From Girardia tigrina (lineage: Eukaryota), in contig MQRK01239521.1 in the NCBI GenBank assembly GCA_001938485.1, forward strand, positions 18,696 to 72,709: a stretch of 54,014 bases of DNA, read 5' to 3'. The stretch's first letter is position 1. Every line of letters begins with the position of its first letter. Shown here in pieces: positions 2,010-30,147 of the stretch. The position numbers and the translations under genes are program-made. The notes below the pieces were generated by a model. The model was not told the origin of the DNA. It saw nothing but the letters and a program-made list of their open reading frames with translations, and did not search any database.

Positions 2010-4379
2010 GTTATTTCCTGAAGCTCGGACAAAATACTGCAGTCTACTTCTTTCGGCTAAGAATTCCTCTTTCTCCACCTCGTCTTTTATTTCACCAAGT
2101 TGGCAATCGTAATTATCATCAAAGAGATTCTTTTCTTTTTGCGAATACGACGCTCCATACTTATCCCAATTTCAAAGCAGAGCTTTTTGGAGTCGTCCAT
2201 TGCACTGTCCACNNNNNNNNNNNNNNNNNNNNNNNNNNNNNNNNNNNNNNNNNNNNNNNNNGCAGAACTTTGATTCAGATTGAGCCCTTTTGTTTGAAGA
2301 TACTTCTGGGCATCATTGATCTCTGGTAGAATGGAATTCCCAAGGTTCAAAAGCGACAGAAACGGAAATGACAGTACTGATGATAGGAGGAAAGATGCAT
2401 CTGATCTTGTCATTAAATTTTCTCCTTCTTTGGTGAGCTTCTCCAGAGCAGTCACGACTTGTGATAATTTTTTCACAAATACATTTACAGCATCAGCTCG
2501 AGTGCTCCATCTGGTTTCCACAACCCACTTGATACTTAGACCAGTTTCATGAACCAGGACATCCCAGCGATGCGTAGATGAGGAAAAAAAGAGAACAACG
2601 GGTCCAATGTGCCAAAACATGTAACAGATAGAATCACAACGGAAGCTGCATGTATGCAAGCAAAATTCAGGGAGGGATTTGAGCTTGGAACAAATAGAGC
2701 TTTCGTGTTAATTTCCAAGATGCGCTTCTGGACACCCGTTTGATGGGCAGACATAACAGCTGCATTGTCATATGCCTGGCCACGGCAATCATCAATCTGA
2801 ATCTCGTCGTTTTCCAGTTGTCTAAATATCAGTTCAGAAATTTCCTTTGCGCTCTTTCCCTTTGTCTCGATAAATCGAACAAACGACTCCTCCCCTTTTA
2901 CTTCATTTCCATCCATGTTTACGTAGCGTAAAACCTCGCTCAACTGGTCCTTGTGAGATATATCTGGAGTGCTATAAAAATTATGCAAAAATACTTGCTC
3001 TTCTTGACCTGTGCTATGATTTTCTTTCTCACCTGCTGCGCTAAAATGCTCACAAATTCATTTTGAACCTCTGGTGACAAATAGGAAGTGACGANNNNNN
3101 NNNNNNNNNNNNNNNNNNNNNNNNNNNNNNNNNNNNNNNNNNNNNNNNNNAAATGAACCAATTCCAAAAAGTTTCCTCTATTTTCCTGGTCTCCGTCTTC
3201 GTGGATGTCTTCTCAATGGCCCCTTAGTGCCAGGTTTTGCGAGGAAAGAAATCTGATGATGTCCAGTAAACTGGCTAGAATTTCACGCCATTTCTTAGTC
3301 TCCTATTCAATTAATTCTTCCTCCTTTATTGCCTTTCTTTTAGCGAGCCGGATCTCTAGCTCCTTCCACTTGAGGAATGCCTGCGCATTCGATGTGTTAA
3401 CTTCGCGCTCATGAACTTTAGGATTTAATTTCCACCAGTTCTTAAAGCCTTCTTCAGCAGAAAAACTAGACAGCCAAACTGAAAACAGTCTGCAGCAAAA
3501 GCAGAACAGGGCCTCCTTTGAAGGAGAATACACCATACATGTTCTCATACTTTTCTCTCCTTTCCGTTGATCACGAAAAAACCATTTTTTGGTTAGCTTT
3601 CTAGAGTCACCTTTTGTGTTTGTGCCTGGTCGTCGTACTTCTTTGAATTCACAATTAAGGTGCTGCATAGAAGTATATCCTTAACGAACAAGCATAGCGC
3701 GAATTTTATGGCTAATCTTAACTGGCCAAAGACCAATGTCCGTAAAATCACTTACAAAGTCTGTTTTCAGAGTGATTAATTGTTACATTTCTTGTGCTTC
3801 AATTTCCCTCTCACAAACTTCTGCATCAATGGTACCTTCGCCTTCCACAGTAGCAGTATCGACTTCAATTGTAGCATTAGCAATATAAAATTTATCTCCA
3901 GTCTCTATTGGATTATCGTCCACCGTACCCATCACTTTGTTCGTAGGCGATGAGGTCCTTTAGATGAATTTCAACAGTGCCCCTTCATTATTTTTTGACT
4001 CCTCTTCCACAACTTTTTTCTTCTTACAGAATGACGCCCCGCTCTGTTTGACTCTCTTGATCACAGACATACAAAGTAAGAAAATGCAATCAAATAAAAT
4101 TTAATAACCGGAAGTATTTAACTGAAATACCAAAATCAAAACATTGTCATGTAACGGTAAAGAATTTGTACACATCTGATAAGAGACAAATCTTCCAGCC
4201 CATTAGCAGTTTTCATTAAATTAGTTCATTTAAACATTCTGTTATGTCCAGCATTTCTGGTCAGATTTTTCTTCGTTTTATTTTATACATAATATTTCTC
4301 ACTTTCACAAATGCCGCCCCCAACAGTCGTGCCGCCCGGGGCTGACCGCCACCCCCGCCCCCCCTACGCTACGCCACTG
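2010..4379 (-). mobile_element. hAT (Tip100/ZMYM1-like) transposon, 3'-truncated, pseudogenised transposase
   Basis: Minus-strand fragments in order: WPVK, YSPSKEALFCFCCRLF, LALRGH, YLSPEVQNE, STPDISHKDQLS, CRGQAYDNAAVM, ETRWS. GC-rich 5' terminus CAGTGGCGTAGCG ends at 4379. Multiple frameshifts. Confidence 0.88.
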
Positions 4380-5099: not shown

Positions 5100-8000
5100 G
5101 CAGGACAGCCAGCACTGAAGAAACAGTCAATCCATCACATTCAGAAAGTCAGTCCATCCAAAAAGAATCAATGTTACCGATAGTTATCATTTCTATCATG
5201 CATTTACAACAGTCTGTCATATGTAGCTCAATATTACCATCTATTATTGGATTGTTACAACAGTCGGAACAGCTTCCAGCATCTGAAATGATAATTTCTC
5301 AAGAAGTCGAAAATTATGAAAATGGTATCGTCAAATCCTCTCACACTTCTGTACGAGCAATTGTATCAGAACAAATGTAATATTTTGAAGAAACTGACAA
5401 CCATGAAGCAATGTGCTTTGATTTGTTTAAGCGACAACATTCATCCGCCTCCTAAGTACATAATATATGGAATTCATCGCCAAACATCCATTAGAACCCC
5501 ATATGCCTTTACCATTAAAAACTATTCGATTATATAATCGACAAATATCCGATAAAGAGAAGGTAAACCGAACATGGCTTTAATTGGATTCAACCAGTTC
5601 TAAATTATATTGCTCTTTATGCGTGTGTTTCGATGACGATATGACAGCTCAACATCCTTTTTCAAACGATGGCTGTTTGATAGCAGTCAAAAATGTTTAC
5701 ACTAAAGTGCAGAAGCATGAACAATCTTAAATCCAGAAAAAAAGTGTCAATGTTTCTTTAAGCGCTAAAAGCGAACGAAATATTGAAAATTATGTAAACA
5801 CTGACATGATTGCAAAACGGCACCAAGAAGTCAAAGCAAATCGCTTGATATTACATCGTCTAGTGTAGGGGTGGGCAAAGTTTTTTTTAATTGGGCCACT
5901 CTCGAATTTCTAAGCTCTTCTGCGGGCCAGAAAATTTATTTCAAGAAAATAATTGATAAAATGAGTTTCCACAAGACATTTATTACAAATAATATCATAT
6001 GACATATGTTACAAAATTTATAAATGATTAACATTTCAATATGAAAAAAGATTTTACAAAAATCAATGAGAAAAGTGAAGTTGTTTGAAGTCATACACAA
6101 GCTTATCAAAGTTAGGCTGCATATTTGTGGTGGCAATTCTCAAAACAGCTGCTAAATGTTCGTCTGTCATTTGTGATCGCAAGTCAGACTTGTTGTGCTT
6201 CATGATCGAGAATGTTTGTTCACAAACATAAGTTGATCCAAACATCACCAGCATGCTTTTTGTAAAATCTTTCAAGTTTGGATACAAATCATTGCTTAAT
6301 GATTTGAAGAACAGGATAACATTTTCAGGCTTAAATGAATCCTTCAACACATTGGTGGACTGTAATTCAATCAGTTCTAATTGGATATTAGAAGGCACAT
6401 GCTCAATGTTGAAGTAAATGGATTTGAGAGAATCATTAATTCAAGCTGTATTTTTTTGAAATCTGTGAAGCGCCTCGAAAACTCGCTTTGAAGATCACTC
6501 AGCTTTTTGGTGTATTTTTCAACTTCAATAACACTGATTGTCAAAGAATTCAGATTTGGGAAATGCTGAAGTTTTCTTTCTTTCATTTGATTAGAGAAGA
6601 GAGTCAGCTTTTTTTCAAATGCATTCACTGCAAAATACAGTTCATGAATAATAGCATCTCATCGTATCAGAGTCACATTGAGCTTGTTTAAATGCTCCAT
6701 AATGTCAACAAGAAATGCCAGATCTGCAAGCCACTGGGGATCATAAAATTGTGGGAATTGATCATCCTTTTGCTTCATTTTCAAAAACAGCTTTATTTCT
6801 TCTTTGAGTTCCCGAAGTCGCTTTATAACTCTTGCCAAACTGAGCCATCGGATATTACAATGATAGGGAATTCCATTGTAATCAACTTCAATCTCCTCCA
6901 TAAATGCAATAAACTGACGATGATTGAGCCCTCTTGCTCTAATGAAGTTCACGATTTTTACCACAACCTTTACAACATGGTTCATATTAAAAATATTCTT
7001 GCATAGTGCTTCTTGATGAATAATAGAATGAAGAAAAGCAAGTTCATGATCTCGACATATTTCATGAACAATTTTTTTAAGTCTACTAAGAAGACCAACA
7101 TTCTTGTCAGTTAAATTTGGTGATCCATCAGTTGTTAAACTTTTAAGTTTAGTCCATGAAAGACCACGCTTTTCAATGCACTCTTTTACTTTCAGAAACA
7201 AATCTTCACCTGTTGTAGTATCCTTCATTGATTCCATTGAAAGTAATTCCTGACTGTTGATACCACGAATAAAAATAAGCAATTGAGCTGTATCAGTAAT
7301 ATCTGTTCTGTCATCCAGTGCAATAGAAAAATTTTTCAAACTTTTCACTCTTCAACATCAGCTGCTTCAATAAATCTTGATTAATATCCTCTACTCGACG
7401 CACTATTGTTCTTCTGGACAGGCTTAATTTTTCAAAATCTTTCACTTTTTCTGGACACACAACTTCAGCTACATGAATCATGCATCTCTTGATGAATTCA
7501 CTATCACAAAATGCTTTACTTTCTTTTGCAATATTAAATGCCACAAGAAAACTTGCATGGCTTACTGCCTCTTGAGTTTTATTTTGCTTTGTAAAAATAT
7601 TTTGCTGTTTTTTCAACTGCTTCAACAAATCACTTGCTTCTTGCACTCTTGCTTCATCAGATAGATTGCTTCCATAATTTGCATGTTTAGAAATTAAATG
7701 CAGTCGTTTATTATGCTCTTTGAAAACTGCCACTTCTTCTTGACAAATCAAGCACGCTGCTTTATCTTTGCGTGTAGTAAAAAAATACTTTGTTGTCCAT
7801 TCATCATTGAACTTTCGATTTTCTCTATCTACTTTTCTCTTTTTCGCATCAGACATAATTGCAAATATTTACCTAAAAAATTAAAACAGTAAAAAAATAG
7901 ATAAAAATTTGAAATTGAAATTTGTCAAAAGCAATAATAAAACAAACGATATAAAAGAATTCATGAATTAATTTAACCGGAATTATACAAAAATACTGTT

Positions 8001-9470: not shown

Positions 9471-10260
9471 TTTATTGAATTTTATTAATGAATTATTGTT
9501 ATTTATTTTGTTTAGTGAATTATTTCAAAATATAAACAAAATATTAATATTTAATAATATTTTTTGGGTTCTTGATCAAAATTATAATTCATTAACACCA
9601 AATTTTATTTCTAACACCAATAACAATTATTCAAACAATTTTTCGTCGAGGAACTTTTCTTCGTTTTCTTTTTGACAAGATTTTTATATAAAAATATGGA
9701 ATTATAAATACTGATAAGCTATTTTAAAATTGATTTTTTTTTATTCTCTTTATTTTGAAAATTTACATTCCACTATTTTATGCAACTTAATTTAAATTAA
9801 AACCAACATAAATTTTTGTGGTCATGTTTTTACTAAATTAACAAAAAGGATTTTTATTATTTTAGAATTAGTTTAATGTTATTTTCTTTTATTTGTGAAA
9901 ACGTTTTTAATTAATAAAAGATTTTAACGTTATATTTATTATCAATATTTCATTTTAAAAGCCTTTTATTATCCACAATAATTCAAAATACAAAAATATA
10001 CAATTTGTTTTAAATAAAATTTAAAAGCATTTTTTTACCTACAATTATTTTAAATACAATACAAATTTTAAATACAATTTAAATATAAAAAATAATTTAC
10101 AGTATTCAAATTTTTATAATTACTACCCTAATTCATATCTATTCGGACACGTAAAATAATTCTTAGTAAAAATTTTAAATTATAAATAATATGTACTTAT
10201 TTGTATTATAGATGAATTAATTTGATATTTTACGATAACCTAAACACAATTCTAAGTTAA

Positions 10261-10379
10261 TGTAACACGCGAAAATTTTATTTTCAAAACAATGTTTAAT
10301 TGATAATATTTAAACAAAATATTTATCAAAAAAGCAAATATTAAATATTTGAAATAATCAAAATATCTAATATCCAACA
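10261..10379 (-). repeat. 3' LTR of Gypsy 1
   Basis: 4 mismatches in 119 bp versus 14023-14141. Confidence 0.93.
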
Positions 10380-13300
10380 ATCCAGATTAGTCCAGATTCG
10401 TTCACAGAAGAATCTGAATCCACAATGTAATCATTTTGATAAGGCGGTCTTCGTCTTTCTCTTCTAGGCCTATTGTTCAATGATTGTTCCTCTTGTGTTT
10501 GATTGTCTGGTAGTGATGTAGTTTCGTCCATATTCATATCGTATGACTTGGAATTTTCAACAAATTCAGGCTGTCTGGGTCGAATGTCTGCGATGTCTTG
10601 GACCACAAATCCGTTGCAATTTACTAGATATTTCCTCTGATCTATTCTCTTCACGACAACACCCTTGGCCCATTGCTGTGTACATGGTGTACTGTTTTCC
10701 GGTTTTACTCACACTAATTGATTCTCTACATAATCTGGATTTCCACAAAACGGTTCCTTTTCACTTCTTCCAATTATATCTAACCCTATGGGCAAATGGC
10801 TATATACAGCGCCGAGCTTGGTGTTTCCTTTCCTTCAGATGGCGTGTTATTATACCACCATAAGGCTTCCAATATGCTGATATTTGATCTGGACGCAATT
10901 CTTTTGATTGTTCTATGATTCCTTTCTATTATCCCGTTGTAGTTAGGTCGATTGATGGCACGATACATGACTCGAACGTTCCACTTTTCCATTAGCTTGT
11001 TGAATTCTACCGAATGAAATGCGGTATAATTATCGATAATTAGTTCCTTGGTAGACCCGCGTTCACAGAACAAACTTGAAAATTCTGAGACAATTGACTT
11101 GACGTCTTCAGCTTTAATTAATTTCCATATCGCAAAGCGAGAAGGACCACAATCGATTACACTTAAAAATTTTTGTTGATTGTACTTTGTAACATCCGCA
11201 GCAAGTCTTGTCCAGTTTTCGTTGACGCTCAACCGGTTTTCCATTTTACGGGTGCCGGATCGATGGATTGACATTTTTGACATCTTGAAATCAGATCCTT
11301 GATATCCGCGTTTGACACACCTATTCCTTGCTTCGCACATAGATATCGCATTCTGTTTGGGCCTAAATGACACTTATCATGAAGTTGATACAGCTTGAGC
11401 AGATCGTCCGCAACCGATAAAAAACAATTGCTTCTTTTTAATTGTTTTGGGATTCTTGTCAACTCGTCCACCTTGTTATCTTTGCTATTAACAAACTCGA
11501 TCTTCAACTCGATCTCATACTCCTGACACAGTTCCTTGATCATCGACAGTCTTCGTTTTATTAAAAGCTCAGATGAAGCCTTGGTATTTAATTTTTCGTG
11601 ATCTGAGATTGTTGTGGTTACCCACGAAACTACTGACTTATTATCCGATTTTACTATCACGCTCCTTAAACCCCATTTCACACATAAGTTAAAACCCTTT
11701 ACAACTGCTTCTAGTTCTGCTACATGTCTAGAATCATCATGCTATTTGTCTAGAATCATCAGTTTTTCTCAACCATGATGCGTCCTCGATTATGTTCCCC
11801 TTGACTTCTAACGCCACACCAATGGCTATTGAACTTGCGTCGCACTAAATAATACCTTCCCTGTAGTCATCAATGTCCCATAAACTTCTACGAGGATCAC
11901 TATCCCTCACTATCTTTAAAACCCATTTAATCTTTTCGAAGAATTCCTCGTCTATCTTTTCATCCAACCTTCCATCACTAAGTCGTTTAAGATATGAACA
12001 TGACGGATGTAGCCAACTAGCTACCGGATGTATTCCTACTAATTGTCCACATAACGAATATAACTCACGACGTGAAATTGATTCCACATCCAACTCTTTC
12101 CTTATCTGATTGTCCCTTTTCCATCTCACTACATGTTGCTCCTTAAAGACTTTCATTCCTAAAACTCGAACTTCGTTGGCTTATGACAGATTTTCCGGTT
12201 TCTTACATTTGAGACCGAAGTTATTGAACACCTTTTCTACTTCTTCAACAGAAATGAAACTTTCATTTACATAAATATTATCAATATAAGAGTCGGTATT
12301 TTCACACATCCTGGTGTCAGAGTTCAGAATCCACCTGACGATTTCGGTCATTATAGTTGGCGATATGTTTAAACCAAAACCCATTCTAGTTAAAGCATAT
12401 TTATTGTTATTAATGATACAAGAGTGGTAACGCCACATGTCCTTATGAACATGAATCTGCATGTACGCCTCTGACAAATCAAGCATTGAAAAAGTTGAAC
12501 CCCTACGCCGCCAATCGCGGAGCTTTTCTAAAAATATGTCCGCAGAACCACTGTAAACGTCCACGTAATTGTTTAATTTTCTAAAATCAAAAATGGGTCT
12601 TATCTTGGACTTATTAGCCTGTAATATTCCAAATATCGGTATGGATCCTATCGATTTACCCATTTCCTTCATATTGTACTCGATTAGATAACCCTTTTCT
12701 ACCCAACCGTCTAAAATTTTCAACGTTGCCACATCTTTTAATTTGTTGTCCTTAAAAACTGACTGACGATTCGGAAGATGACTCAGAGCCTCACTTTTCC
12801 AATTCCATTTAATCGACAAATTTTCCTTAAACTCAATTTCAAAATTATGCTTTTTTATACTAACAAGAGGTGCATCTGATGCAGTACAACTCAAGCTACG
12901 ATCTATCCCTTTAATTTCTTCTTCGCTGAACTCAATAACACCCTTATTAATTCTCACGCCACCAAATTTACCTTAGACATCCATGCCTATTAAGATCCCT
13001 AGACCATACGGCAAATGTTCCATGACCGAACATTCCACCCTAATGATCCTACCATTTATATTCAGCCGCACTTCACCCTAACCCACTCTAACACCCTTTC
13101 CATTTGCCAAAACCATACTTTCTCCGTCAGAAAACAACATACAATCACTAACTAACCTTTTTAAAACAACCGTTTTCGAACAACCCGAATCAATCAACGC
13201 TATGGCTCACCTGTCATTTACAGTGACGATCATCGTCGGAAACGGCTGCATCTGTGAAAGAAGAGAGCCGGTGCCTACAAACTCCCCTGTTCGTTTCCAG

Positions 13301-14010
13301 ACCGACAATATTTTGCGATATGACCCGCTTCTGAAGCATATTGTTTGTCTGTTTGATTGCCACTGAGAACCCTTATGATGATTACTTTCCTTCGATTTGG
13401 TGTCTCTCTCACGATAAACATAGGGTCCTCTCTGAAAATTTACTCTGGGTTTATCGAGTTCTCCCTGACCTACGGAACTCCCTGTTTCTTTGTTGTTGTT
13501 TCCGTGTTGTATTGCTGCCATTGAACCCTGTAATAAACCCTTTTTAATCCACAAATACCTGCGGCTATACTCTATCATTTCGGTCAGCGGTTGGTCGCCG
13601 GCCAGTTCCAAATCCACCTGCAACTCGAAAGGCAGTCCAGCCATTAAGGCAGCCTTTGTTAGGTCGTCGACCTTTGTTGCTAACATTTTCACCTGAGATG
13701 CATATTCATCGATAGTCTCGCTCTCGTGATACTGTAAGTTTATCAATTGACTGTACGCCGAACGTGTTGTCAGGCCGAACGAGTTGTTTAGTATCTTGAA
13801 GAACCGATCGCAGCTGCTTTGTGTCTTCTCGTCCGATTCCATGTAGATGTTCAGTGCAACCCCCGATAGTAAAAGGGGGAGATACGGGACTGGATCAGTA
13901 ATCTTCTGGATTTTCATGACCATTTCAAATTTCTTCTGCCAAATGTCGAAGCTGATGCTTCAATCAAATTTTTCCAAAAACTCCAAAACGATTTTCATAT
14001 CATTCATTAT

Positions 14011-14022
14011 GCCCGGATAGCT
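14011..14022 (-). promoter_or_regulatory. Putative non-canonical primer-binding site AGCTATCCGGGC
   Basis: Abuts the 5' LTR; reverse complement GCCCGGATAGCT equals nt 1-12 of the conserved metazoan tRNA-Lys(UUU) as I recall it. Confidence 0.6.
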
Positions 14023-14141
14023 TGTAACACGCAAAAAGTTTATTTTCAAAACAATGTTTAATTGATAATATTTAAACAAAGTATTTATCAAAAAAGCATA
14101 TATTAAATATTTGAAATAATCAAAATATCTAATATCCAACA
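14023..14141 (-). repeat. 5' LTR of Gypsy 1
   Basis: TGTTGGATA...GTGTTACA on the minus strand, directly upstream of gag. Confidence 0.93.
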
Positions 14142-14856
14142 ATTAATTTGAAGAAATCAAATAAAAAAGTTAACTAATAAAAATTTTATTCGCATTTAAA
14201 AATTTGTTCTCAAATTCTAAAGAATTCAGACATCTGCTTTTCAATTCAAAAGAATTCGGACACTTAACAAAAATTATAATATAAATGTAGGCAATGAATT
14301 ATTTTAAATTCAATATGGATTATTAGTAAAAACCATGTAGTTATTATTGTTTAAATATTTCAATCGATTAAATTTTCGTTATTTTTAAAATAGGTTCGAG
14401 GAAAAAAGATGCATACGGAAATGCGTGAGAAAATATTTGCCATGCATATCAAAGGAAAACCAGTAAGGGAAATTTCACAAATTTTTGAGATAAGTAAATC
14501 GATGGTGTTCGATAACATTAAAAGAGATAAATAACCTCAGAATAACTCATCGCCAAGGAAATCTGGACGACGAAAGTTGACTTCCGCTACTGATAACAGG
14601 TGTTTGAAGAGGTTAATTCCTCAATATCGTCGTGCTGCTGTTCAAGAAATGAACGAGAAATTGAGTATGCAAACAGGCATTTTTTCTTCTCCGTCCACTT
14701 GTCTACGTCGAATACATGAATTAAATTATTCATTCTAAAAGGTAAGATTTTCTTAATGAAATATAAGCATTGCGTAACACTTCTTTAAAGTTAAAAACAA
14801 ACAGTTTCTGTCACCTATTCAAAAGAAAAAGAGACTTGAATGGGTTCTTAATCATA

Positions 14857-18031: not shown

Positions 18032-19149
18032 CTTCTAAATTTACAAACACTTGGATGATGAAAAATAATATGTCCTTCTGGACATGGGCTTCAGGAAGCC
18101 CAGATTTAAGTCCCACAGAGAATGTTTGAGCAATTATGAGAAAAGGAATTAGGAAAAAAAACGTCCTAAAAATAAAATTGATTTGAAGAATAAAATTTTA
18201 GCAATATGGAATAGTTTTCTAATTGATAAATGTCAGGATTTATACAATTCAATGAATAGAAGAATGGAAGATGTCATAAAAGCAAAGGGCGATGTTACAA
18301 TATTTTAAATAGTAGGTGTCCGAATTCTTTTGAATTTGAGAACAAATTTTTAAATGCAAATAAAATTTTTATTAGTTAACTTTTTTATTTAATTTCTTCA
18401 AATTATTTTAGAATTATATTTACATTATCGTAAAATATCAAATTAATTCATCTATAATACAAATAAGTACATATTATTTATAATTTAAAATTTTTAACAA
18501 GAATTATTTTACGTGTCCGAATACATATGAATTTTGGTAGCATTACGATACATTAATGATAAAAGTTTTAACTTTTATTTTATTTTACAAAAACTGTTTA
18601 GAATTAAGTATTTGTCAAATCTTTAATTTGCGGAATTACAAACTGACTTTAAAATTATCTGTTTTTTTAATTTAAATCTCTGGCAACAAAGTTCATTATT
18701 TTATTTTTTAGAATAACTTTTAAAATTAGTACAAACATAATTATCCTAGTCTTTATATATTTCTTTTAAATCAATTATTTAAAAATCCATTATTTCACAA
18801 TTAATTTCATTTTAAGTTTTTACTCTACAATTAAAATTTGATTATTTCCAAAAATAAATTTTTAAAATTAATTAAGATATATTTTTTAATTATAATTGCT
18901 TAGAAAACTTTTGATTTTAAATTGTAAGTACTTTCCATTATAAAAAGAAAATATCGTAAAACACAAAATCTAGCAAAATTTATTAAAATTCAAATTTGTG
19001 CCAAAACACAATATTAAAACAAATCAGGAGTTTATAAANNNNNNNNNNNNNNNNNNNNNNNNNNNNNNNNNNNNNNNNNNNNNNNNNNNNNNNNNNNNNN
19101 NNNNNNNNNNNNNNNNNNNNNNNNNNNNNNNNNNNNNNNNNNNNNNNNN

Positions 19150-22100
19150 NCCCCTTCTTTAAAAAGTTTTAGCCACTCTATATTTCGACATATCAATCTG
19201 CCTGTTTTATTTTCTAATTCTACACTCCGGTTGTGTATATTCCGAATAATCCGATATGGCCCTTCATATTGACCTGTTCCTTTTAATCTATTTTCAACTT
19301 TCAACAATACCAAATCCCCTTGTTTAAAACATAGTTTCTGTACATATGTTTGAGGTTTTTTGTTTTCCATTTGTTGTACTTCTTCGATAATTTTTTTATT
19401 GTCAAGATCATAACGACGCGATCCATCCAATATTATCCGTTTCCCGAAAATAATTTCTGATGGGCTAAATTTTGTTGTACTCTGCTGAGAAGCATTAATA
19501 CAAAATTCAATTTCCGGTAAGAAATCAACCCAATTTTTTCTACCAGTATTTTTCAATGTTGCATTTAGGGCATCTCTAATAGTACGGAACTGACGTTCTG
19601 TAATCCCATTAGCGCTGTGGTGATATGGGCTCGAAAATTGCACTTTGATTAACATTGATTTGGTAAAATCTGTGAAAGATCTTGATTCAAAAACTTTTCC
19701 TCGATCTACATGAATACATGCCGGAGCTCCAAATTTTAATATCCATTGCCTCATAATTGTTTGGATTGTAGTTGTATCATCCTGAGTATTAACAGCTGTC
19801 AAGCTTATATATCGACTGAATCTGTCTATTATTCCCAAAATGTATTTCTTTCCATTTATTACTGGCATTGGACCACAGAAGTCTNNNNNNNNNNNNNNNN
19901 NNNNNNNNNNNNNNNNNNNNNNNNNNNNNNNNNNNNNNNNNNNNNNNNNNNNNNNNNNNNNNNNNNNNNNNNNNNNNNNNNNNNNNNNNNNNNNNNNNNN
20001 NNNNNNNNNNNNNNNNNNNNNNNNNTATTCATTCATCAAGAAGGCATATGTTTTCTTGACTCCTGCATGACACAAAAATTTATGGAAAAATGTAATGCAG
20101 TCATTTCTAGAGCTTTTCGGAATCCAAATTTTATCTTCAACTGTTTTTATACATCCGTCTTTAAATGAAAAATCTTGTATTAATCCTTCATTTATCCCGC
20201 TCATAATTCCACGAATTTCATCATTGTTCTGTTGCCAAGGGATATGCAGTTCTTCTTCATCTAATACCTGCATTCGAGTTCGTTGCTTACTTATTTTAGC
20301 TTCTTCATGTTTTGTCATACATTGGGCACACACCATACATTCTTTCCTCGATAATGCATCCGCATTTTGATGTAATTCACCTTTTCTGTATTCAAAAATC
20401 ATGTCTAAACTACTCAAGTAGTTCATCGAGTACTGAAATTGTGGTGTTATAGGCTTTTTTGTCATCATCTTAAAAACAATTGCTTTGTGATCTGTTCTTA
20501 ATTTAAAACGATTCCCATACAGGAAATGTTTGAAATGTTGTGTGAAGTGGACGATTGCCAATAATTCTTTTCTGGTTGTGCAATATCCTATTTCATGTTT
20601 CGACATTGCTTTAGATCCATAAGCGATAACTCGTTCTTCTCCGTGGTCATTTACTTGGGATAAAACAGCTCCAATCGTATCGAACGACGCATCTGTATCC
20701 AAAACAAATGTCTTCGTGAAATCTGGATACATTAGTACAGGTGCTCTCGTCAAGGACTCTTTCAACTTATTAAATGCTGCTGAATGTAAATCCGTCCAAA
20801 ATAAAGTGTCTTTAGAAGTACTGCACATGGATTCCAAAGGTATTGCTAATTTATAATAATTTGAAATGAATTTCCTATAATAGTTGCATAAACCCAGGAA
20901 ACTGCGAAGCTTTTTGAAGCATTTTGGTTGTTGGAATTCCCAGATGGTTTTTATTTTATTTGGATCTGTTTTTATACCTTCTCTATTCACCACATGACCA
21001 AGGAAGTGCAGTTCATTTTGAAACAATTTACATTTCTCTGGGTTAATACGTAGACCTGCTTCTTGTACCTTTGAGAACAACTTTTCCAATCTATCTAAAT
21101 GTTCCATTTCGGTTTTGGAGAATATCAGAATATCGTCCAAATATACTAACGCTTCTTTCCATAACATGTCTTTAAGAACATCATTCATCAACCGTTGGAA
21201 AGTTGCAGGTACTGCAGCTATGCCAAATGGCATTCTTGTAAAACAGTACTGCCCCGTCTTCGTTGAGAATGCCGTTTTTAATTTTGAAGACTTTTCTAAT
21301 TCCCCTTGATAGTAAGCGTTTCCTAAGTCTATCGAACTGAACCATTTCATGCCGTTCAATGAATCCAGCATTTCATCAATATTTGGCATAGGAAATATTG
21401 TTCTCTCAGTAACTTGATTTAGCAGCCTAAAATCCAAACACAAACGAATTTCATTTTTCTCTTTCTTCCATATACACACCATTGGTGTATTCCATGGTGA
21501 TGAACATTTCTCTATGATTTCATTTTGTTCCAAATTCATGATAGCATCGTCAATATGACGTTCCAAATGGACGGGTTGTCTTCTCGGCTTCTGTGTAATT
21601 GGGGTTCCGGTTGTTTTAATTTCATGCTTGATCCATGATGTTTTGCCGATATCCCATTTCCCAGCCATGAAAATATTTTTATACTTCTCTATACATTTAT
21701 ATCAATTAGTACCCTCGCGAAGGTGTAATTTTTCTTTAGAATTCCGAAATCTATCCGCTGATGTGTATTTGTATTTATTGATATATGGGTCAATAGTGCA
21801 GATCATATCATTCTTCGGTATATCTAAATGTTCTATTGGTACATTTATTTCATTTAACTTATTCATTTGACACCTGAGTTCAAATCCAAGAGCTTTAATT
21901 AGTTCAATTCCAAATATAATCGAAGGAGATACTTCCTTTGATACATAAAAAAGTTGTCGTATTTTGATATTCCTCCATTTCACATCTATATAACATACTT
22001 CATCCAATTCCATATTCGTTCCATTTGCACATACTGCTGAAGTGGTTGTATTATTATTTAACGATATCTTAAATTGATGAACTAATTTCAAGTTTATAAC

Positions 22101-22604
22101 ATTAATTCGGGCCCCCGTGTCAAATAAACAATTCATTTCTATATCTCTACACTTTGTTTTCATGCTCGGTCGTCCATTAAAAACATTATAGTCTAATATG
22201 CCCTGATTGTTCATCTGAAATTCAGTTATCTTATCTAAAAAGCACAAATCATTTTTTTTCTATCAATTTTCCTACCAACATCTTTCTCTTTATTATAGAC
22301 TATGATTTGGCCAAACTTACTGTTATCTTTGGTCACCTCACACTTTTTTTTTACCATTTTCATTACTATTATTTCTGCAATTTTAATTATTTTTAAAACT
22401 ATGATGAATACTATTATTAAATACGTAATTATATATACTTTTATCATAAATATTAATAATTTTATCAAAATTATTTTTAAAATTATTATAAACATTATCA
22501 TTACAATTTACATTACTAATATAATTACAAGGATTCAGACTAATCTTACTTTTTAATGAATGGCTCCAATCATCTCCTGATCTGACTGAGCCTCCGCATT
22601 TGGG
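19150..22604 (-). pseudogene. Gypsy 2 pol: Asn-rich leader, protease, RT, RNase H, integrase
   Basis: LFDTGA, RLCLDFR, YLDD, TDAS, HAG, DRG...NGITER, GPY. In-frame TGA at 21702-21704 and homopolymer frameshifts in the leader; the 878-aa ORF is otherwise open. Confidence 0.92.
22562..22604 (-). promoter_or_regulatory. -1 programmed ribosomal frameshift signal (gag to pol)
   Basis: Slippery heptamer C CCA AAT in gag phase, 5-nt spacer, then hairpin GGCTCAGTCA/TGATTGGAGCC; the -1 frame reads through the gag stop. Confidence 0.7.
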
Positions 22605-23568
22605 TATCTATCCGTTTTCAACTCTTCGATTTGTGATCCCTCTGTGTCATCGAGCCCGGCCACAGATCGTTGAACCATTCGATGTCTTCTGTTATTATAC
22701 CAATTGTTTTGGCCCGATTGGGTTGTTTGAAAACCTTTTCTGAAACATTGATAAGCCAAATGACCTTGAAACTTACACACTGAACACTTCAAGTAGGGAC
22801 ATTCTCTTCTTATATGCCCTTCACCTTTGCAGCCATAACAAATCTTAATATTATTGGGGCAATCTCGGCGAACGTGACCACTTTTTTGGCACCCATAACA
22901 TATCACTGTATTCCGACTGTTTCCATCAAAATTTTGTCTCACTGGCATTTGTTTGTTGAAATTTCTTGTTTCTGAGATTCTCCTTTGTTGATTTGTTTGA
23001 ATTGGGAATGCTGCTCTCTCTTTAAGAACATTTGCGAATGTCTTCTGTCGATGGATATTTGCGATTTCTCCCNNNNNNNNNNNNNNNNNNNNNNNNNNNN
23101 NNNNNNNNNNNNNNNNNTTTTGATTGTTTCTTGGGATTTCGCTTCTTCCATATAGATTTGTTTTTTCACATCTATATCATCCACACAATGTGTCAAAAAA
23201 TATGACATTAATTCTGGTTTGGTCCATTTATGATTGAGGATTCGGCCAACCATCTTTTCGATTTTATTGCAATATATAATCTCTGAATCTTCACCTTTCC
23301 TGTAGTTGATTATTTCTTGCAGATCTTGAATCAGCGACGTTGGTTTTTTGAATGCTTTCCTGAGTCGGTCAACGAAATTAAAAATCTTACTGTCCACATT
23401 TTCATACGTGGCAAGCAAATGACGGTGTATAAATGCTTTAACCACCAGTGGTTGTAATGTCTCACTAATTTGTGAAACCTCAAAAAATCGCTGACAATCT
23501 GTGATGAACTGTTCCAGATCTCCCACTCCATTATACATTTGAGGCGCCAGGTTATTTATGGCACTTTG

Positions 23569-23579
23569 CGTGGTCGCCA
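23569..23579 (-). promoter_or_regulatory. Primer-binding site, likely tRNA-Arg(UCG)
   Basis: TGGCGACCACG immediately after the LTR CA; complementary to ...CGTGGTCG-CCA. Confidence 0.75.
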
Positions 23580-23890
23580 TGTAAGTACTTTCCATTATAA
23601 AAAGAAAATATCGTAAAACACAAAATCTAGCAAAATTTATTAAAATTCAAATTTGTGCCAAAACACAATATTAAAACAAATCAGGAGTTTATAAAATTAA
23701 TCTGGATCCAAATTATAATTTAATATATATATGCAATATGATAATTTAATATAAATAGTAATATATAAGTTAATTTTCCTCACATAAATATTTCCTTATT
23801 TTAGAAATTTTTTATAAAAATTAATTGTTTCAAAATTTTAAGAGTGAGCCTGTCCTTAGCAATATTAATCTAATAATTTACGATTATCTG

Positions 23891-24415: not shown

Positions 24416-25693
24416 TTAGGTTGGTCGAAAAATAATGACAGTTCTTGAGCTTTATACTTTGTTTATCTACTTTGATATGTATATAAGTTTAAATGTATTA
24501 GTGTTAGATATTATTTAAAATCTTATGCCTAGCTGTATATTCCTATAGCCATTATTAACATATTGCTGTTATTTTTTAGAATATTTACGGTGCTAAATTA
24601 ATAATGGAAAAAATTAAAATTCGAGCAATTTTCTTGGACGAATTTAAACTGGGTCGTAAAGCAGCAGAAACGGCTCACAATATCAATAAAGCGTTTGGCA
24701 AGGGAACAGCTTCTGAGCGCACAGTGCAACGATGGTTCCGAAAATTTTCTGATAGAGATGAAAACCTTGAAGATGAAGAAGGTCGTGGTCGTCCAGNNNN
24801 NNNNNNNNNNNNNNNNNNNNNNNNNNNNNNNNNNNNNNNNNNNNNNGTACAACAATCAGAGAACTTGCAGATGGGTTGGGCATTAGTCATTCAACAGTCC
24901 TGGATCATTTAAAACAACTTGGAAAAATCAAGAAACTTTATAAATGGGTTCCACATGATTTGAATAAAAATCAAAAGAACCGACGCTATGAAATTTGTTC
25001 TGCCAATCATCTTCGCAGTAAAAACGATCCATTTCTTGATCATATTGCTACCTGTGATGAGAAATGGATCCTGTATGATAACCGACGTCGATCTGCACAG
25101 TGGTTGGACAAAGATGAAGTACCGAAACACTTTCCAAAACCGAAACTAACACCCCGTAAGGTCATGGTGACAGTTTGGTGGTGTGATGCTGGAATCATCC
25201 ACTATAGTTTCTTGAATCCAGGTGAAACAATCACAGCGGAGAGGTACTGTCATGAAATTGATGAAATGCATGAGAAATTGAAAACCCTTTGTCCGGGATT
25301 GGTCAATCGAAAAAGTCCCATCCTTCTTCATGATAACGCTAGACCTCATATTTCAAAAGTAACTCTTCAAAAGCTTAATGAGTTGGGCTATGAAACCCTG
25401 CTTCATCCACTATATTCACCAGACCTCTCGCCAACGGACTTCTACTTTTTCAGGCACTTGTACAACTTCCTACGTGAAAAAAATTTCAAAAACCAAAATG
25501 ATGCTCAAAATGCTTTCCAAGAATTTTTCGCTTCGAGAACCGATGCATTTTATGCTGATGGAATAAAACAACTTGTTTCTCGTTGGCAAAAATGTATTGA
25601 TGCTAATGGTTCATACTTTGATTAATAAACTTGATTAATAAACGTCTTTGAAGTTTGTGTCCCAAAACCGCCGTCATTTTTCGACCAACCTAA
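24416..25693 (+). mobile_element. mariner (DD34D) transposon, full length; transposase 24604-25625 with a frame change near the N gap
   Basis: TA TSD; TIRs TTAGGTTGGTCGAAAAA; WVPHDL, TCDEKW, HDNARPH, YSPDLSPTDF. Confidence 0.96.
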
Positions 25694-26613
25694 TATTAAG
25701 TGTCATAGATTCATTATAGTTATATTCAGTTACATCAATTAATATAAATACCTTTTTGTGTAAAAATACATCAACTATACAATTTTTGCAAAGTATTAAA
25801 TTTTATTATTCTGCGATCATAAAAAAGACAAATTACTTTTTTCCTTATTCATCATCTTTCAGAGGCATAATTCATATTTTTCAAAATTATTTTTTATTTA
25901 AGATTGAAGGAGAGAATTTTCACAATCACTGTATAAACAGAAACAAAACAATAGATGCATTTACAAATTCTTCATTCCAGCTCTACATAGAGATATTTAT
26001 ATAATACACTTTAATATTTACATATCTTGTTTGGTAAATTTTATAACACTATGTACTTCTCTTTCGGGGTAAAGTTCCTGGTTTTCTTTCCTGATTACTT
26101 TCCACACACGTTCTGCGTCTAAAAATAAAAGACACACTTTCTCGTCGATTTGTCATATTCTCTGAGGTCAGAATGTTTTCGGGAAAGTTTTCTTCCCGTT
26201 TCCCATCAAAAAGACTCTCTAAATAAGAATGATGTGTAGAATAAGAAATATAAACAACCAAAAAAAATTTAAATACAATACAAGATTAAATAGCAATAAA
26301 AGATAATTTTAAACTGAAAATAATTAAAAATATAAATAATAAATAAAATATTTTTACAACCGATATTCGGTATATTGATTTATGAAACAATGAGACAATG
26401 AATCTGACTGCCGTGTTTGTGTGTGTGCATCGCTATCAGCGATTTTGATTGGTCAGTGTTCCTCAAGATCACTGTGAAACTGTGTTTTGTCTTCAACGTA
26501 ATATTTTATACAATTATTTACAATTATCAATTTTCAGATAGTAAAGTTTTTATAAATATCATATTATATTTAATATATGAGTCTTCATATTTTCACATAA
26601 TTTCTCTTATCAA

Positions 26614-29600
26614 ATGGGATCTTATGTTGAATTATTGAAAGCATGCAAAGAAGGAAATTCGCGGAAAGTTAGAAAGTTGTTGGAAGATTGTACCGATATC
26701 GGTGACGTCCGAGATCTCACCGACAAGACATTGTTGCATTATTGTTTCAAGAATGATTCATGCTCTGATTTGATTCTTGAAGCTGCCCCAGAACTTCTGG
26801 ACGTTGGAGACAAGCATGGCTACACGGTGCTGCACCTGGCGTCCATGATTAAACCTCCAGTCTCTCTCAAATATATTTTATCGAAAAAACCAGATATTAA
26901 TAAGAGAAATAATGATTCTCGGAGCGCTCTCATTCTGGCAGTGATCTATGACAATTGGGAAGCTGTAGAAATCTTGTGCGAGCATAATGCAGATGTCAAT
27001 GTCACTGATATTACTGGTGTTTCGCCATTACATTATGCTGCTAAAACGAAATCTCCCAAAGATTCTATGGAAATGAAAATAATTGATATTCTTTTAGAGA
27101 ATGGGTCCAATATTGACAGCCCCGACTCGTACGATCGATCTCCGCTGATGTGGGCGGTTTGTTCGAATAACATCACTAAGATGAACCATCTGATCGCCAA
27201 GGGATCGAACATCTATTCAAAAGATAATAGTGGTTTATCTATTTTACACTACGCCACGTCAAATGGAAATGTCGAAATTCTCAAGCTTCTTTTAGACGAA
27301 TATAATTTTAATATTGAAACATTAGATTCGAATCTTTGTACCGCATTGATGTACGCATGTTCGTACAATAATCAAGACATCATTGAAATGTTGTTGGAAA
27401 AAGGATCAAATGTTAATGCTGAAGATTGTAAAAGACGAAATGCTGCTCATTTTGCTTGTGGAAAAGGAGACCTTCGAAATTTAAAGATTTTATATAAATA
27501 TAACGCAGATTTATGGAAATTGAATAATGACAGCAATTATCCGTTACATGAGGCTGCCTATAAGGGTCACACCGACATTGTTGAATTCTTGATTGAAGAA
27601 ATGAAAGACAAAGATTTGCTTCAAACGTATATAAACCATCGAAATTCTAATGGACAAACACCATTACATTTGGCTACTGCAAAAGATAATTTTAAAATTG
27701 CTGAAATTCTTTTAGAAAATGGCGCGGATCCAAATATTCCATTAAGAGTGAATAATGGGAAATCCATGACAGCGTTAGATTTAGCAAATCAAGATCTAAC
27801 AAAACAATTAATACAACAATATAATGGAAAATCAGCCGACGATGTACTAAAGACGTCGGTAATCAAGGAGGAACAAACAGCTTCGATTTCAGAAGAATAT
27901 TCAGAAGATAGTGATAGTGAGTCGATAAGTATTGACTCAGACGCTGAGGAAAATGATAAACACAGTAGTTCAGAAATAGAACATTTTGATATCAATGAAA
28001 AGGATGAATATAGCGAAAAAGATGGCGTTTCAGAATCAAAAGATAATAAATCAGTATCCGAAGATTCAGAGTCCATTATCGATAATAGAAACATTGAAAA
28101 TACAGCATCAAATTCCGAAGAACATCGCACAGAATCGAAAGGTTCTGATATTCAAGAACATCCCAAACGACCTACTATTGAAATTACCGAAGAATATACT
28201 AATTCTCTATTATTCTCATGTAAAAATGGTGATGTAAATGAAATTCAGTCATTTATTGAAAATGGGGGGTCATTACCAGATATTATTGATAAAAGTGGAA
28301 AAACCCTTTTACATTATTCAATAAAAAATAGAGAAGCTTTTGAGATCATCATTAAAGAAGCCCCGGAATTAATTCACAGGTCTGATAATGCAAACATTTC
28401 TGTGTTGAATATGATTATCATGTCGAAAGAAAATTATTTACTTCCGATTGTTTTAAACTTAAATGCAGATTATAATTTTTCGGACTGCAATGGAAGAACT
28501 TCTTTACATCTTGCCGTAATTTATGAGAATTTAGAATCATTAAACTTAATGTGTAATTTGATTACAGATAAAAATCTCTTCTGTCATAAAAAAGATCTGG
28601 AAGGATGTTATCCATTGCATTATGCCGTGGAAATTAGTAAGATAAAGAAAACTGATTGTCAATGCAAAGACTTCCTAGAATTATTATTACAAATGAACGG
28701 AGATATCGAATGTAGAGATAATATCAATCGTACCCCGTTATTATTAGCTGTAAACATCAAAAACATTGAGGCAGTTACGACTCTTTTGAAATATGGTGCG
28801 AATATTATGGCAAAGGATAATCAAAATCTTTGTAGTATCCATTACGTATGTTCATTAGGAAGTTTAGAAATATTAAATGAACTAGCCAAGTTTGAGTCAT
28901 TCGATCCAGATGTTGAAGATCCAAATGGACTGACGCCATTATTTTATGCAATATCTAGTTGCGATGAGAAGATTGTTAAAAGACTTATTGAATTAAACGC
29001 TAAAATTAATGTGATCGATCATTGTGGCAGAAATCTATGTCATAAAGCTGCCGAAAAAGGTGCTTTTAAATGTTTGGAGCATTTAATTTTGTGTAATGTA
29101 GACCCTTGGTTGAAAGCTCATGACGGTACTATGCCTTTACACGAAGCGGCTTATAGAGGTTATAAAGAAATAGCTGAAATTTTATTAAACACACCTGCAG
29201 CAAGAGAAAATATTAATGTTAAGAATAATAACGGACAAACTGCTTTACATTTAGCAGCAGTTCGTAATGATTGTCCAATGTGTTACCTATTGATCGATAA
29301 GGGTAGCAGTATTAATGAAATTCTGCATCATGATAACAATGCCGAAGACGTAACAGCATATGATATAGCTACAACACCTTATTGTAAAGACACTTTACGT
29401 GAGTTTGGAGGAAAAACAGCAAAAAAAATTATTGATTATGTCAATCCAGAAACTGATTTTGAAATTTTAGATGAATTAATGATGAAACAAGACAATCCTA
29501 TTTTCGGGAGAAATAATTCTATAAGAAGTACAGAATTAGCCTTGTCGACCATTCCTAGTATTGTATATACTGCTCAGACTAATGAAAGAAGTAGCAGTCA

Positions 29601-30147
29601 ACTATCACACTCTAATAAACCTGTACAAAGTTCAAAACAGTCATCTAAGAAATCTAAAAACTCCAGCCGGAAAAACATTTCTATTTGTGAGTCTGAAAGA
29701 TCGTTGCTAAATAGCAGTGGAAGTGATCGTAAAACAACAAAACCCTTATCTCTAGGTTCTGAAAAAAGAATCATCAATGATAGTAACAGTGACTTGCAAA
29801 GTCATAATGAGAAAATATCATCAAGAAAATCTGGGAATCGTTCCGCAATTTCTGAATGCTCGGGATTAAGTCGAGAGCAATCCAAATGCACGTCTGCAGA
29901 TGGCAATACTCGCAAGTCGAGTTCAAGATCAAAATCATCAAAAGCATCAAAATTATCTGTCAGAAAAAATAATTTTATTGAAAAAGAAATGCAAAATCGA
30001 GTACACAATTCGGTATTAAATTATGAATACACGAGACTGAGTTGTAAAATAGCAAATGATATAATGAGACAGAAAATCAGAGAGGAAAATGATGAAAAAT
30101 TGAAACATTCCAGAGGAAATCGAACAGTGAAAACTTCCAGACCCTGA
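26614..30147 (+). CDS. Ankyrin-repeat protein, 1177 aa, two duplicated ankyrin modules separated by an acidic Ser/Asp/Glu linker, Ser/Lys-rich tail
   Basis: Intact single ORF with roughly 20 or more TPLH-type repeats; downstream AATAAA at ~30289; candidate 40-nt 5'UTR intron at 26498-26537. Confidence 0.93.
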   Translation: MGSYVELLKACKEGNSRKVRKLLEDCTDIGDVRDLTDKTLLHYCFKNDSCSDLILEAAPELLDVGDKHGYTVLHLASMIKPPVSLKYILSKKPDINKRNNDSRSALILAVIYDNWEAVEILCEHNADVNVTDITGVSPLHYAAKTKSPKDSMEMKIIDILLENGSNIDSPDSYDRSPLMWAVCSNNITKMNHLIAKGSNIYSKDNSGLSILHYATSNGNVEILKLLLDEYNFNIETLDSNLCTALMYACSYNNQDIIEMLLEKGSNVNAEDCKRRNAAHFACGKGDLRNLKILYKYNADLWKLNNDSNYPLHEAAYKGHTDIVEFLIEEMKDKDLLQTYINHRNSNGQTPLHLATAKDNFKIAEILLENGADPNIPLRVNNGKSMTALDLANQDLTKQLIQQYNGKSADDVLKTSVIKEEQTASISEEYSEDSDSESISIDSDAEENDKHSSSEIEHFDINEKDEYSEKDGVSESKDNKSVSEDSESIIDNRNIENTASNSEEHRTESKGSDIQEHPKRPTIEITEEYTNSLLFSCKNGDVNEIQSFIENGGSLPDIIDKSGKTLLHYSIKNREAFEIIIKEAPELIHRSDNANISVLNMIIMSKENYLLPIVLNLNADYNFSDCNGRTSLHLAVIYENLESLNLMCNLITDKNLFCHKKDLEGCYPLHYAVEISKIKKTDCQCKDFLELLLQMNGDIECRDNINRTPLLLAVNIKNIEAVTTLLKYGANIMAKDNQNLCSIHYVCSLGSLEILNELAKFESFDPDVEDPNGLTPLFYAISSCDEKIVKRLIELNAKINVIDHCGRNLCHKAAEKGAFKCLEHLILCNVDPWLKAHDGTMPLHEAAYRGYKEIAEILLNTPAARENINVKNNNGQTALHLAAVRNDCPMCYLLIDKGSSINEILHHDNNAEDVTAYDIATTPYCKDTLREFGGKTAKKIIDYVNPETDFEILDELMMKQDNPIFGRNNSIRSTELALSTIPSIVYTAQTNERSSSQLSHSNKPVQSSKQSSKKSKNSSRKNISICESERSLLNSSGSDRKTTKPLSLGSEKRIINDSNSDLQSHNEKISSRKSGNRSAISECSGLSREQSKCTSADGNTRKSSSRSKSSKASKLSVRKNNFIEKEMQNRVHNSVLNYEYTRLSCKIANDIMRQKIREENDEKLKHSRGNRTVKTSRP

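Follow-up and report, generated by a model that had tools for sequence, protein, structure and literature searches.

A 12-nt site complementary to tRNA 5' ends is a predicted primer-binding site across a DUF7047-containing lineage of LTR retrotransposons

Passages of a 2019 survey (PMC6317226) list three types of primer for LTR retrotransposons, namely the 3' end of an intact tRNA, half of a tRNA that has been cleaved in its anticodon stem, and a self-primer. According to the same passages, half-tRNA priming was found, within the plants surveyed, only in Ty1/copia elements, the tRNAs being Met or Ile and the cut being located in the anticodon stem. For the self-primed element Tf1, a passage of PMC7175516 reports that the first 11 bases pair with the PBS (primer-binding site), cleavage by RNase H taking place between bases 11 and 12. 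Judging from its sequence, the 12-nt site described below, which lies immediately inside the 5' LTR of an element and of its relatives, would fit none of the three listed primer types.

An LTR element of 3.9 kb occupies positions 10261-14141 of the window, i.e. the 54,014-nt stretch of DNA that was analysed, and is encoded by the minus strand (Table 1). Positions 14011-14022 read GCCCGGATAGCT on the plus strand and AGCTATCCGGGC on the element strand. The latter 12-mer directly adjoins the 5' LTR, which terminates in ACA at 14023, and this confirmed the claim of the original prediction that the 12 nt inside the 5' LTR do not begin with TGG. AGCTATCCGGGC is the exact complement of nucleotides 1 to 12 of human tRNA-Lys3, as given in the primer list of PMC2175372, and of planarian tRNA-Lys-TTT, as given in Table S1 of PMC7962491. 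The proposed complementarity to the start of animal tRNA-Lys(UUU) was thus borne out for the human and planarian tRNAs. The orientation of the site is such that tRNA nucleotide 12 abuts the LTR. With the base composition of the element, the probability of a chance match to one of about 60 tRNA starts (a round figure) at a fixed place is about 8e-7. The 12-mer was found once in the whole window. Its best Watson-Crick complement had 7/12 mismatches in the LTR, in agreement with the original claim that the LTR contains no complement, and 4/12 mismatches in the entire element.

No tRNA gene was detected in the window by ARAGORN, and an Rfam scan of the window returned only a 5S rRNA match and no tRNA. 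The 5S rRNA match, at 46755-46853 on the plus strand, scored 41.7 bits for an Rfam cut-off of 38 and is possibly a pseudogene. Outside animals, tRNA starts of the AGCTATCCGGGC type also occur on tRNA-Phe, tRNA-Thr, tRNA-Val, and others in contigs of a viral collection, in which 41 of the 84 matches to the window 12-mer were called as tRNA starts, including 16 for Phe. The putative 'Lys' identity for the host of the window rests on the human and planarian tRNA data.

Table 1. Features of the two LTR elements of the window, with positions numbered from the first letter of the window.
Feature	Position	Strand	Description
5' LTR	14023..14141	-	119 nt, TG...CA; direct repeat of 10261-10379, 96.6% identical (4 differences)
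3' LTR	10261..10379	-	119 nt; TG...CA
Predicted primer-binding site, tRNA-Lys UUU type, versus tRNA nt 1-12	14011..14022	-	Flush with LTR end
5-bp target-site duplication	Left copy 14142..14146, right copy 10256-10260	-	4/5 identical
gag region	13207..14007	-	Translation; one in-frame stop near start; weak Retrotrans_gag match
Protease, reverse transcriptase, DUF7047 thumb region, RNase H start	11749..13206	-	In-frame stops break the frame
RNase H remainder and integrase zinc-binding region	11229..11741	-	Other frame; RVT_3 E 1e-8, Integrase_H2C2 E 9e-4
Integrase core	10786..11373	-	Other frame; rve E 1.7e-3
Short inverted repeat, then polypurine-tract position	10380..10416	-	Sequence; tract not purine-rich here
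Second element, canonical Ty3/Gypsy	18923-23695	-	Control; LTR repeat identical over 116 nt aligned; N gaps

The coding order of the element is gag-PR-RT-RH-IN, and the window copy is disrupted by 6 in-frame stops and by frame changes. The first ATG of gag, at 14007, lies 3 nt past the 12-nt site, and the Retrotrans_gag match in this region (E 1.3e-4) is under the curated cut-off. The product of the segment extending from the protease to the start of RNase H shares 70% identity with P0002, a natural protein whose frame is unbroken. In the family copies of one sequencing run, the loose end that the majority show upstream of the LTR is rich in purines when read on the element strand, and the non-purine tract of the window copy is therefore probably a defect of that copy. 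A hairpin stem of at least 5 bp was found just before a G-rich purine tract in 27 of 39 relative contexts, versus about 5.5% of shuffles, and its arm sequences differ. At the level of sequence, this stem is a second signature of the lineage; the inverted repeat may position RNase H or aid strand transfer.

Family copies of the element were obtained from contigs of four sequencing runs, bearing four organism labels, by alignment to positions 13800-14220 at 80% likeness. All four runs cover the bin containing the site. Forty variants were listed across 13833-14174 and none of those listed falls within 14000-14032, a result that falls short of proving identity at the site since 13 weaker variants are unlisted. 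The site is spanned by long records differing from the window at 28-36 letters. Loose ends start at both LTR edges, 14022/14023 and 14141, thus confirming the LTR boundaries. Near-identical element DNA is present in the runs with four organism labels and also in freshwater and sediment metagenomes, the latter unaligned; this spread across labels may reflect related hosts, horizontal transfer, or contamination. The segment 14144-14760, which adjoins the outer edge of the 5' LTR, is itself a repeat in each of the four runs, with a common loose end at 14217. By eye, it resembles the terminus of a decayed transposon of the Tc1 type that served as the insertion target of the element.

The breadth of the site was assessed in relatives identified on the basis of their proteins. 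A PR-RT-RH query returned 129 proteins, and DUF7047 (PF23088) was present in 120 of the 120 listed. Named relatives belong to Hydra vulgaris, a barnacle (Amphibalanus amphitrite), a bryozoan (Watersipora subatra), and a sea spider (Nymphon striatum). A profile constructed from 52 proteins then identified 78 metagenome loci and 4 loci in prokaryote assemblies (82 in total). The profile scan also returned one distant element of the viral collection (L079), which was excluded from the counts, and a scan of viral contigs with a single protein returned no relative. Four lineage members (L080-L083) are located on bacterial MAG contigs and are most likely animal DNA that was mis-binned. Many contigs of L003-L082 are circularly permuted, with the LTR in the middle of the contig and repeated ends; these permuted contigs may be collapsed repeats or LTR circles.

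Fifty-seven of the 82 loci, selected by protein alone, had a gag start and upstream DNA, and the other 25 were excluded from this set. The motif AGCTA-N4-G(G/A/C)(C/G) was present immediately before gag in 52 of these 57 loci, against only 3 occurrences in 337,449 bases of the antisense strand. Among the remaining five loci, L001 is one letter off the Phe type described below, L076 has a 13-nt version, L011 starts inside the site, and L040 and L051 have CGCTACCGAGGC. A total of 59 sites were assigned, including those of L007, L024, L027, and L037 from outside the 57 loci and excluding those of L011 and L076. Clustering at 80% RT-RNase H identity distributes these sites over 44 clusters, with a median pairwise identity of 48%. 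The gag ATG is located at most 20 nt from the site in 55 of the 59 loci. An ordinary PBS starting with TGG, which the window copy might have lost, was found at 0/59 relative sites, and the site itself is conserved both in the family copies and across the lineage.

In 53 distinct contexts, the letters preceding the site are C at position -2 (50 contexts) and A at position -1 (52 contexts). Positions 1-5 and 10-12 are conserved in 50-53 of the 53 contexts, partly by construction since the calling motif fixes these positions. Positions 6-9 vary, and conservation falls to 30/53 at position 13. The CA boundary, the fall after position 12, and the letters at positions 6-9 are outside the calling motif. 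The site was flush with the LTR-terminal CA in the window and in 4/4 relatives with both full LTRs inspected. Several sites are off pattern, namely the 13-nt version of L076 (near 1925), L039:1958 and L053:71, which end in GCG rather than GGC, and the single-letter variants of L001 and L054:76. These sites may be errors, products of decay, or complements of other tRNAs.

The letters of the sites were compared to tRNA starts obtained from sourced sequences. The most frequent site, AGCTATTTCGGC (15 loci), is the complement of the start of human tRNA-Phe, as given in the part of PMC2175372 that lists it. AGCTATCGCGGC (12 loci) is the complement of the start of planarian tRNA-Phe-GAA, and AGCTATCTAGGC (10 loci) that of the start of a tRNA-Phe-GAA gene in a viral contig. 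The Lys-UUU start is the complement of the site of the window, which was found at one additional locus, and AGCTAGCCGGGC (1 locus) is the complement of the Lys-CUU start appearing in a passage of PMC8216282. Exact complements of sourced tRNA starts thus account for 39/59 sites. CGCTACCGAGGC (2 loci) matches human elongator tRNA-Met at 11/12 positions. In this site, the LTR-adjacent letter changes from A to C where tRNA nucleotide 12 changes from U to G. The LTR-adjacent letter therefore follows tRNA nucleotide 12, suggesting that pairing extends to nucleotide 12 without a spacer. For one further site, the sole match is a Thr gene in a viral contig, and 17/59 sites match no sourced tRNA start (one type with 7 loci, one with 4, one with 2, and four singletons). 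Genes of viral contigs account for only 2 of the 14 site types. Phe is the commonest type, with three alleles, Lys-UUU, Lys-CUU, and Met being rarer. The site is thus a predicted PBS for tRNA nucleotides 1-12 throughout the lineage, mostly for Phe rather than Lys. The part of the original prediction that proposed pairing with a tRNA 5' end extends to the lineage as a whole, but the tRNA-Lys that it named is a minority type.

A quick tree of 66 RT-RNase H rows, computed with FastTree and having long branches, was used to examine how the site types are distributed. The Lys-UUU and Lys-CUU sites are neighbours in one three-member branch, close to the Met types, and the window element forms a long branch among the Phe types. 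For 60 labelled rows and 14 states, 23 changes of site state were required, versus at least 35 in 200 shuffles, indicating that the site is inherited yet switches often. The site would track the tRNA of each host, the loci being metagenome contigs and the tRNA starts used for comparison being those of human, planarian, and viral-contig tRNAs. An A at tRNA position 9 is required by 53/53 contexts. The G9 residue of tRNAs is often methylated in such a way that pairing is blocked, a possible reason why it is Phe, Lys, and Met that the sites match.

The 3' end of an LTR is set by the 3' end of the primer. Since the site is flush with the LTR and TGG is absent, a 3'-OH is needed at tRNA nucleotide 12. 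A tRNA 5' 12-mer is very probably the primer. In the mechanism that we propose, the site would, in the particle, displace the acceptor-stem and D-stem partners of the tRNA and pair with nucleotides 1-12, the predicted energy of the 12-bp duplex ranging from -18.7 to -23.5 kcal/mol. By analogy with Tf1, the RNase H of the element would cleave the tRNA where the duplex ends, after nucleotide 12, thereby leaving a 3'-OH beside U5. Reverse transcriptase would extend this 3'-OH to generate the minus-strand strong-stop DNA. Plus-strand synthesis would then copy the primer up to nucleotide 1 and run off. The site would in this manner be rewritten from the tRNA at every cycle, which would explain both its sharp 12-nt length and the repeated switches between tRNAs. 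Three catalytic acidic residues of RNase H, D468, E504, and D528 (P0002 numbering), are invariant in 52 proteins, and D587 is nearly so. Passages of PMC7175516 and PMC4600332 describe this geometry for Tf1, whose primer of 11 bases is released by RNase H, and by this analogy the RNase H of the element is the likeliest cutter. That the 12-mer is cut free by the RNase H of the element itself is, on balance, probable. The wider proposal is that a widespread and unnamed animal LTR lineage, apart from Ty3/Gypsy proper and distinguished by DUF7047 and an RNase H type of its own, uses its RNase H to cut a host tRNA in trans after nucleotide 12, as a fourth priming mode; we put it forward tentatively, as possible rather than probable. 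If true, it would amount to Tf1 chemistry applied to a tRNA taken from the host, and would form a bridge between elements primed by a tRNA and those that prime themselves.

The host could also produce this primer, if a short 5' tRNA fragment generated by cleavage in the D-loop annealed to the site and its unpaired 3' tail were trimmed to nucleotide 12. All the sequence evidence for the site fits this possibility equally. Many host tRNA nucleases leave 3' phosphates, which are not extendable without healing. Short 5' tRNA fragments are common, planarian tRF-5s of 18, 21, and 24 nt being reported in passages of PMC7962491, but the reported pools exceed 12 nt, although the reads covered in these passages ranged from 18 to 35 nt. 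In addition, a flush 12-nt boundary over 44 families suits a cut measured by the duplex. An origin of the fragment in host cleavage is the principal competing explanation, although we regard it as unlikely. A different function of the site is suggested by its proximity to the gag ATG: it might bind tRNA 5' fragments for control of gag translation, for packaging, or for dimer formation, with priming taking place elsewhere through a split PBS. Boxes of this sort (complements of tRNA 3' ends and T- or D-loop) showed no sense-strand excess in the relatives, the LTR is never followed by TGG (0/59), and the site is flush with the LTR end, which the primer 3' end sets. Such a function in place of priming is very improbable.

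Self-priming of the Tf1 type, by the 5' end of the element RNA or by a splice junction within the LTR, would call for a complement of the site in the element itself. Nucleotides 3-11 of the window LTR pair with the site at 8/9 positions if G-U pairs are allowed, but the best Watson-Crick complement in this LTR has 7 mismatches. L073:1286-1297 is a complement of the site of that locus with 1 mismatch, 327 nt upstream, and L073 is alone in having a complement of its own site with at most 2 mismatches upstream. When up to 600 nt upstream were considered, 56 of 58 relatives had 4-6 mismatches in their best complement; of the other two, one had 3 mismatches and the other (L073) had 1. A complement split by GT..AG, as expected for splice-junction priming, was found in 0/58 relatives and not in the window. 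The site also follows tRNA starts, and we consider self-priming highly improbable. Finally, the match could be due to chance or be the scar of an insertion into a tRNA gene or a tRNA-derived SINE that replaced a normal PBS, as a lone decayed copy could well be rearranged. This explanation has a negligible probability: the site lies within the element, neither of its flanks continues the tRNA sequence, no variant was listed at the site in the family copies of four runs, and distant relatives have the same site. An insertion scar was rejected on the basis of this conservation.

The order PR-RT-RH-IN between LTRs is that of Ty3/Gypsy elements (Metaviridae), and the element has the TG...CA termini and a duplication within the 4-6 bp range of this group (5 bp in the window, 4/5 identical). 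In the relatives, the target duplication is an exact 5-bp repeat in L022 and matches at 4/5 positions in L013 and L021; none was found in L008. The Ty3/Gypsy RNase H profiles (PF17917/PF17919) were detected in 0/52 members at E 0.001, as was the case for the BEL/Pao profile Peptidase_A17 (PF05380), and neither was among the matches listed at E 5. The lineage carries DUF7047 and an RNase H of the RVT_3 type, as assigned with Pfam profiles. The thumb and RNase H of the DUF7047 lineage may resemble those of BEL elements. The nearest long proteins outside the lineage have Gypsy RNase H domains in 3/4 matches, retroviral integrase and reverse transcriptase score at or above Ty3 among PDB profile matches, and Atlas look-alikes are mixed (0.91-0.93 for Gypsy-type clusters and 0.87 for a Pao cluster). 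The 'Gypsy' assignment made in the original prediction is therefore provisional: the architecture agrees with it, but the lineage is without the usual Ty3/Gypsy RNase H profile. The DUF7047 proteins (P0002-P0121 and P0242) may constitute an unnamed major LTR lineage. The main text of two clade papers, on molluscs and annelids (PMC8556966 and PMC6238403), contains neither 'primer' nor 'tRNA', and no match of the lineage to a MolGy or PolGy name was found. Membership in Troyka or Kuafuorterviridae was considered and rejected, the lineage having no CG...CG termini, 3-bp duplication, or xADD motif.

The second LTR element of the window provided an internal control. Its TGG site matches the 3' end of tRNA-Arg at 11/12 positions, and PF17917/PF17919 were detected at 1e-27 to 1e-33. 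The window also contains, at 26581-30147 on the plus strand, a single open frame of 1188 amino acids with two blocks of ankyrin repeats, for which close homologues were limited to two (70-73%). The segments 24777-25625 (+), 34684-35247 (-), 6659-7868 (-), and 2087-3057 (-) contain a mariner-type transposase (Transposase_1, E 1e-26) and other decayed frames resembling DNA transposons. A Spin-doc zinc finger occurs in one frame of this set, and Pfam gave no match for three pieces that were tested.

In the literature searched, there was no report of a PBS for tRNA nucleotides 1-12; Repbase Reports, GyDB, subscription journals, and most supplements are outside this literature, and an earlier mention may exist. 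Searches with the site strings retrieved mostly tRNA studies among the matches listed, in the parts of the texts covered, and no study of such an element. The literature covered includes passages of PMC13524379, PMC6934838, and PMC3286476. A 12-nt primer derived from a tRNA 5' end would be a fourth type for LTR retrotransposons. It would connect cutting in the style of Tf1 with tRNA priming and make the origin of self-priming testable by a single in-vitro assay. In animals, it would also assign to the very short pieces from tRNA 5' ends a direct part in transposition or in opposing it. For annotation, PBS screens based only on the last 12 nt of tRNAs, such as that described in a passage of PMC13524379, would score the lineage as devoid of a PBS. 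Taken together, the site, DUF7047, and the hairpin that precedes the purine tract would provide a simple signature of the lineage.

Comparison with described systems locates the element between several of them. It shares with the canonical Ty3/Gypsy element at 18923-23695 the TG...CA LTRs, a 5-bp duplication, the order PR-RT-RH-IN, and a PBS flush with the 5' LTR, but this neighbour has a TGG site and PF17917/PF17919, and the DUF7047 lineage has neither. The absence of TGG from all 59 relatives and from the window copy distinguishes the lineage from elements primed by a full tRNA. Troyka and the Kuafuorterviruses are likewise LTR lineages of aquatic animals that do not belong to the well-studied clades, and they too have short LTRs and only one RNase H. 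They differ by CG...CG ends and 3-bp duplications in Troyka and by xADD reverse transcriptases in Kuafu, according to passages of PMC12440569 and PMC11673190, whereas the DUF7047 lineage has TG...CA ends, 5-bp duplications, and YIDD. Priming by a spliced-leader RNA, as claimed for Tor elements in Oikopleura, was set aside, as passages of PMC4402516 gave no support for it. The Ty1/copia elements Osser, Bryco, Gymco-II, and Bianca take as primer the 5' part of a host tRNA, released by a cut, rather than the CCA end, as is predicted for the lineage. The copia and Ty5 elements are also primed by half tRNAs. The lineage differs from this group in the pairing of nucleotides 1-12, in the cut, which would be located in the D-stem, in the tRNAs (Phe, Lys, and elongator Met), and in the order PR-RT-RH-IN. 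Tf1 and Tf2 of Schizosaccharomyces pombe, Tj1, and the Tf1/sushi group have a primer of 11-12 nt that starts level with the far end of the PBS, and they need a primer 3'-OH produced by a cut beside the LTR; the lineage is predicted to resemble them in both respects. The primer of Tf1 is the start of its own RNA, whereas the element described here contains no complement of its site and its partner would be a host tRNA acting in trans.
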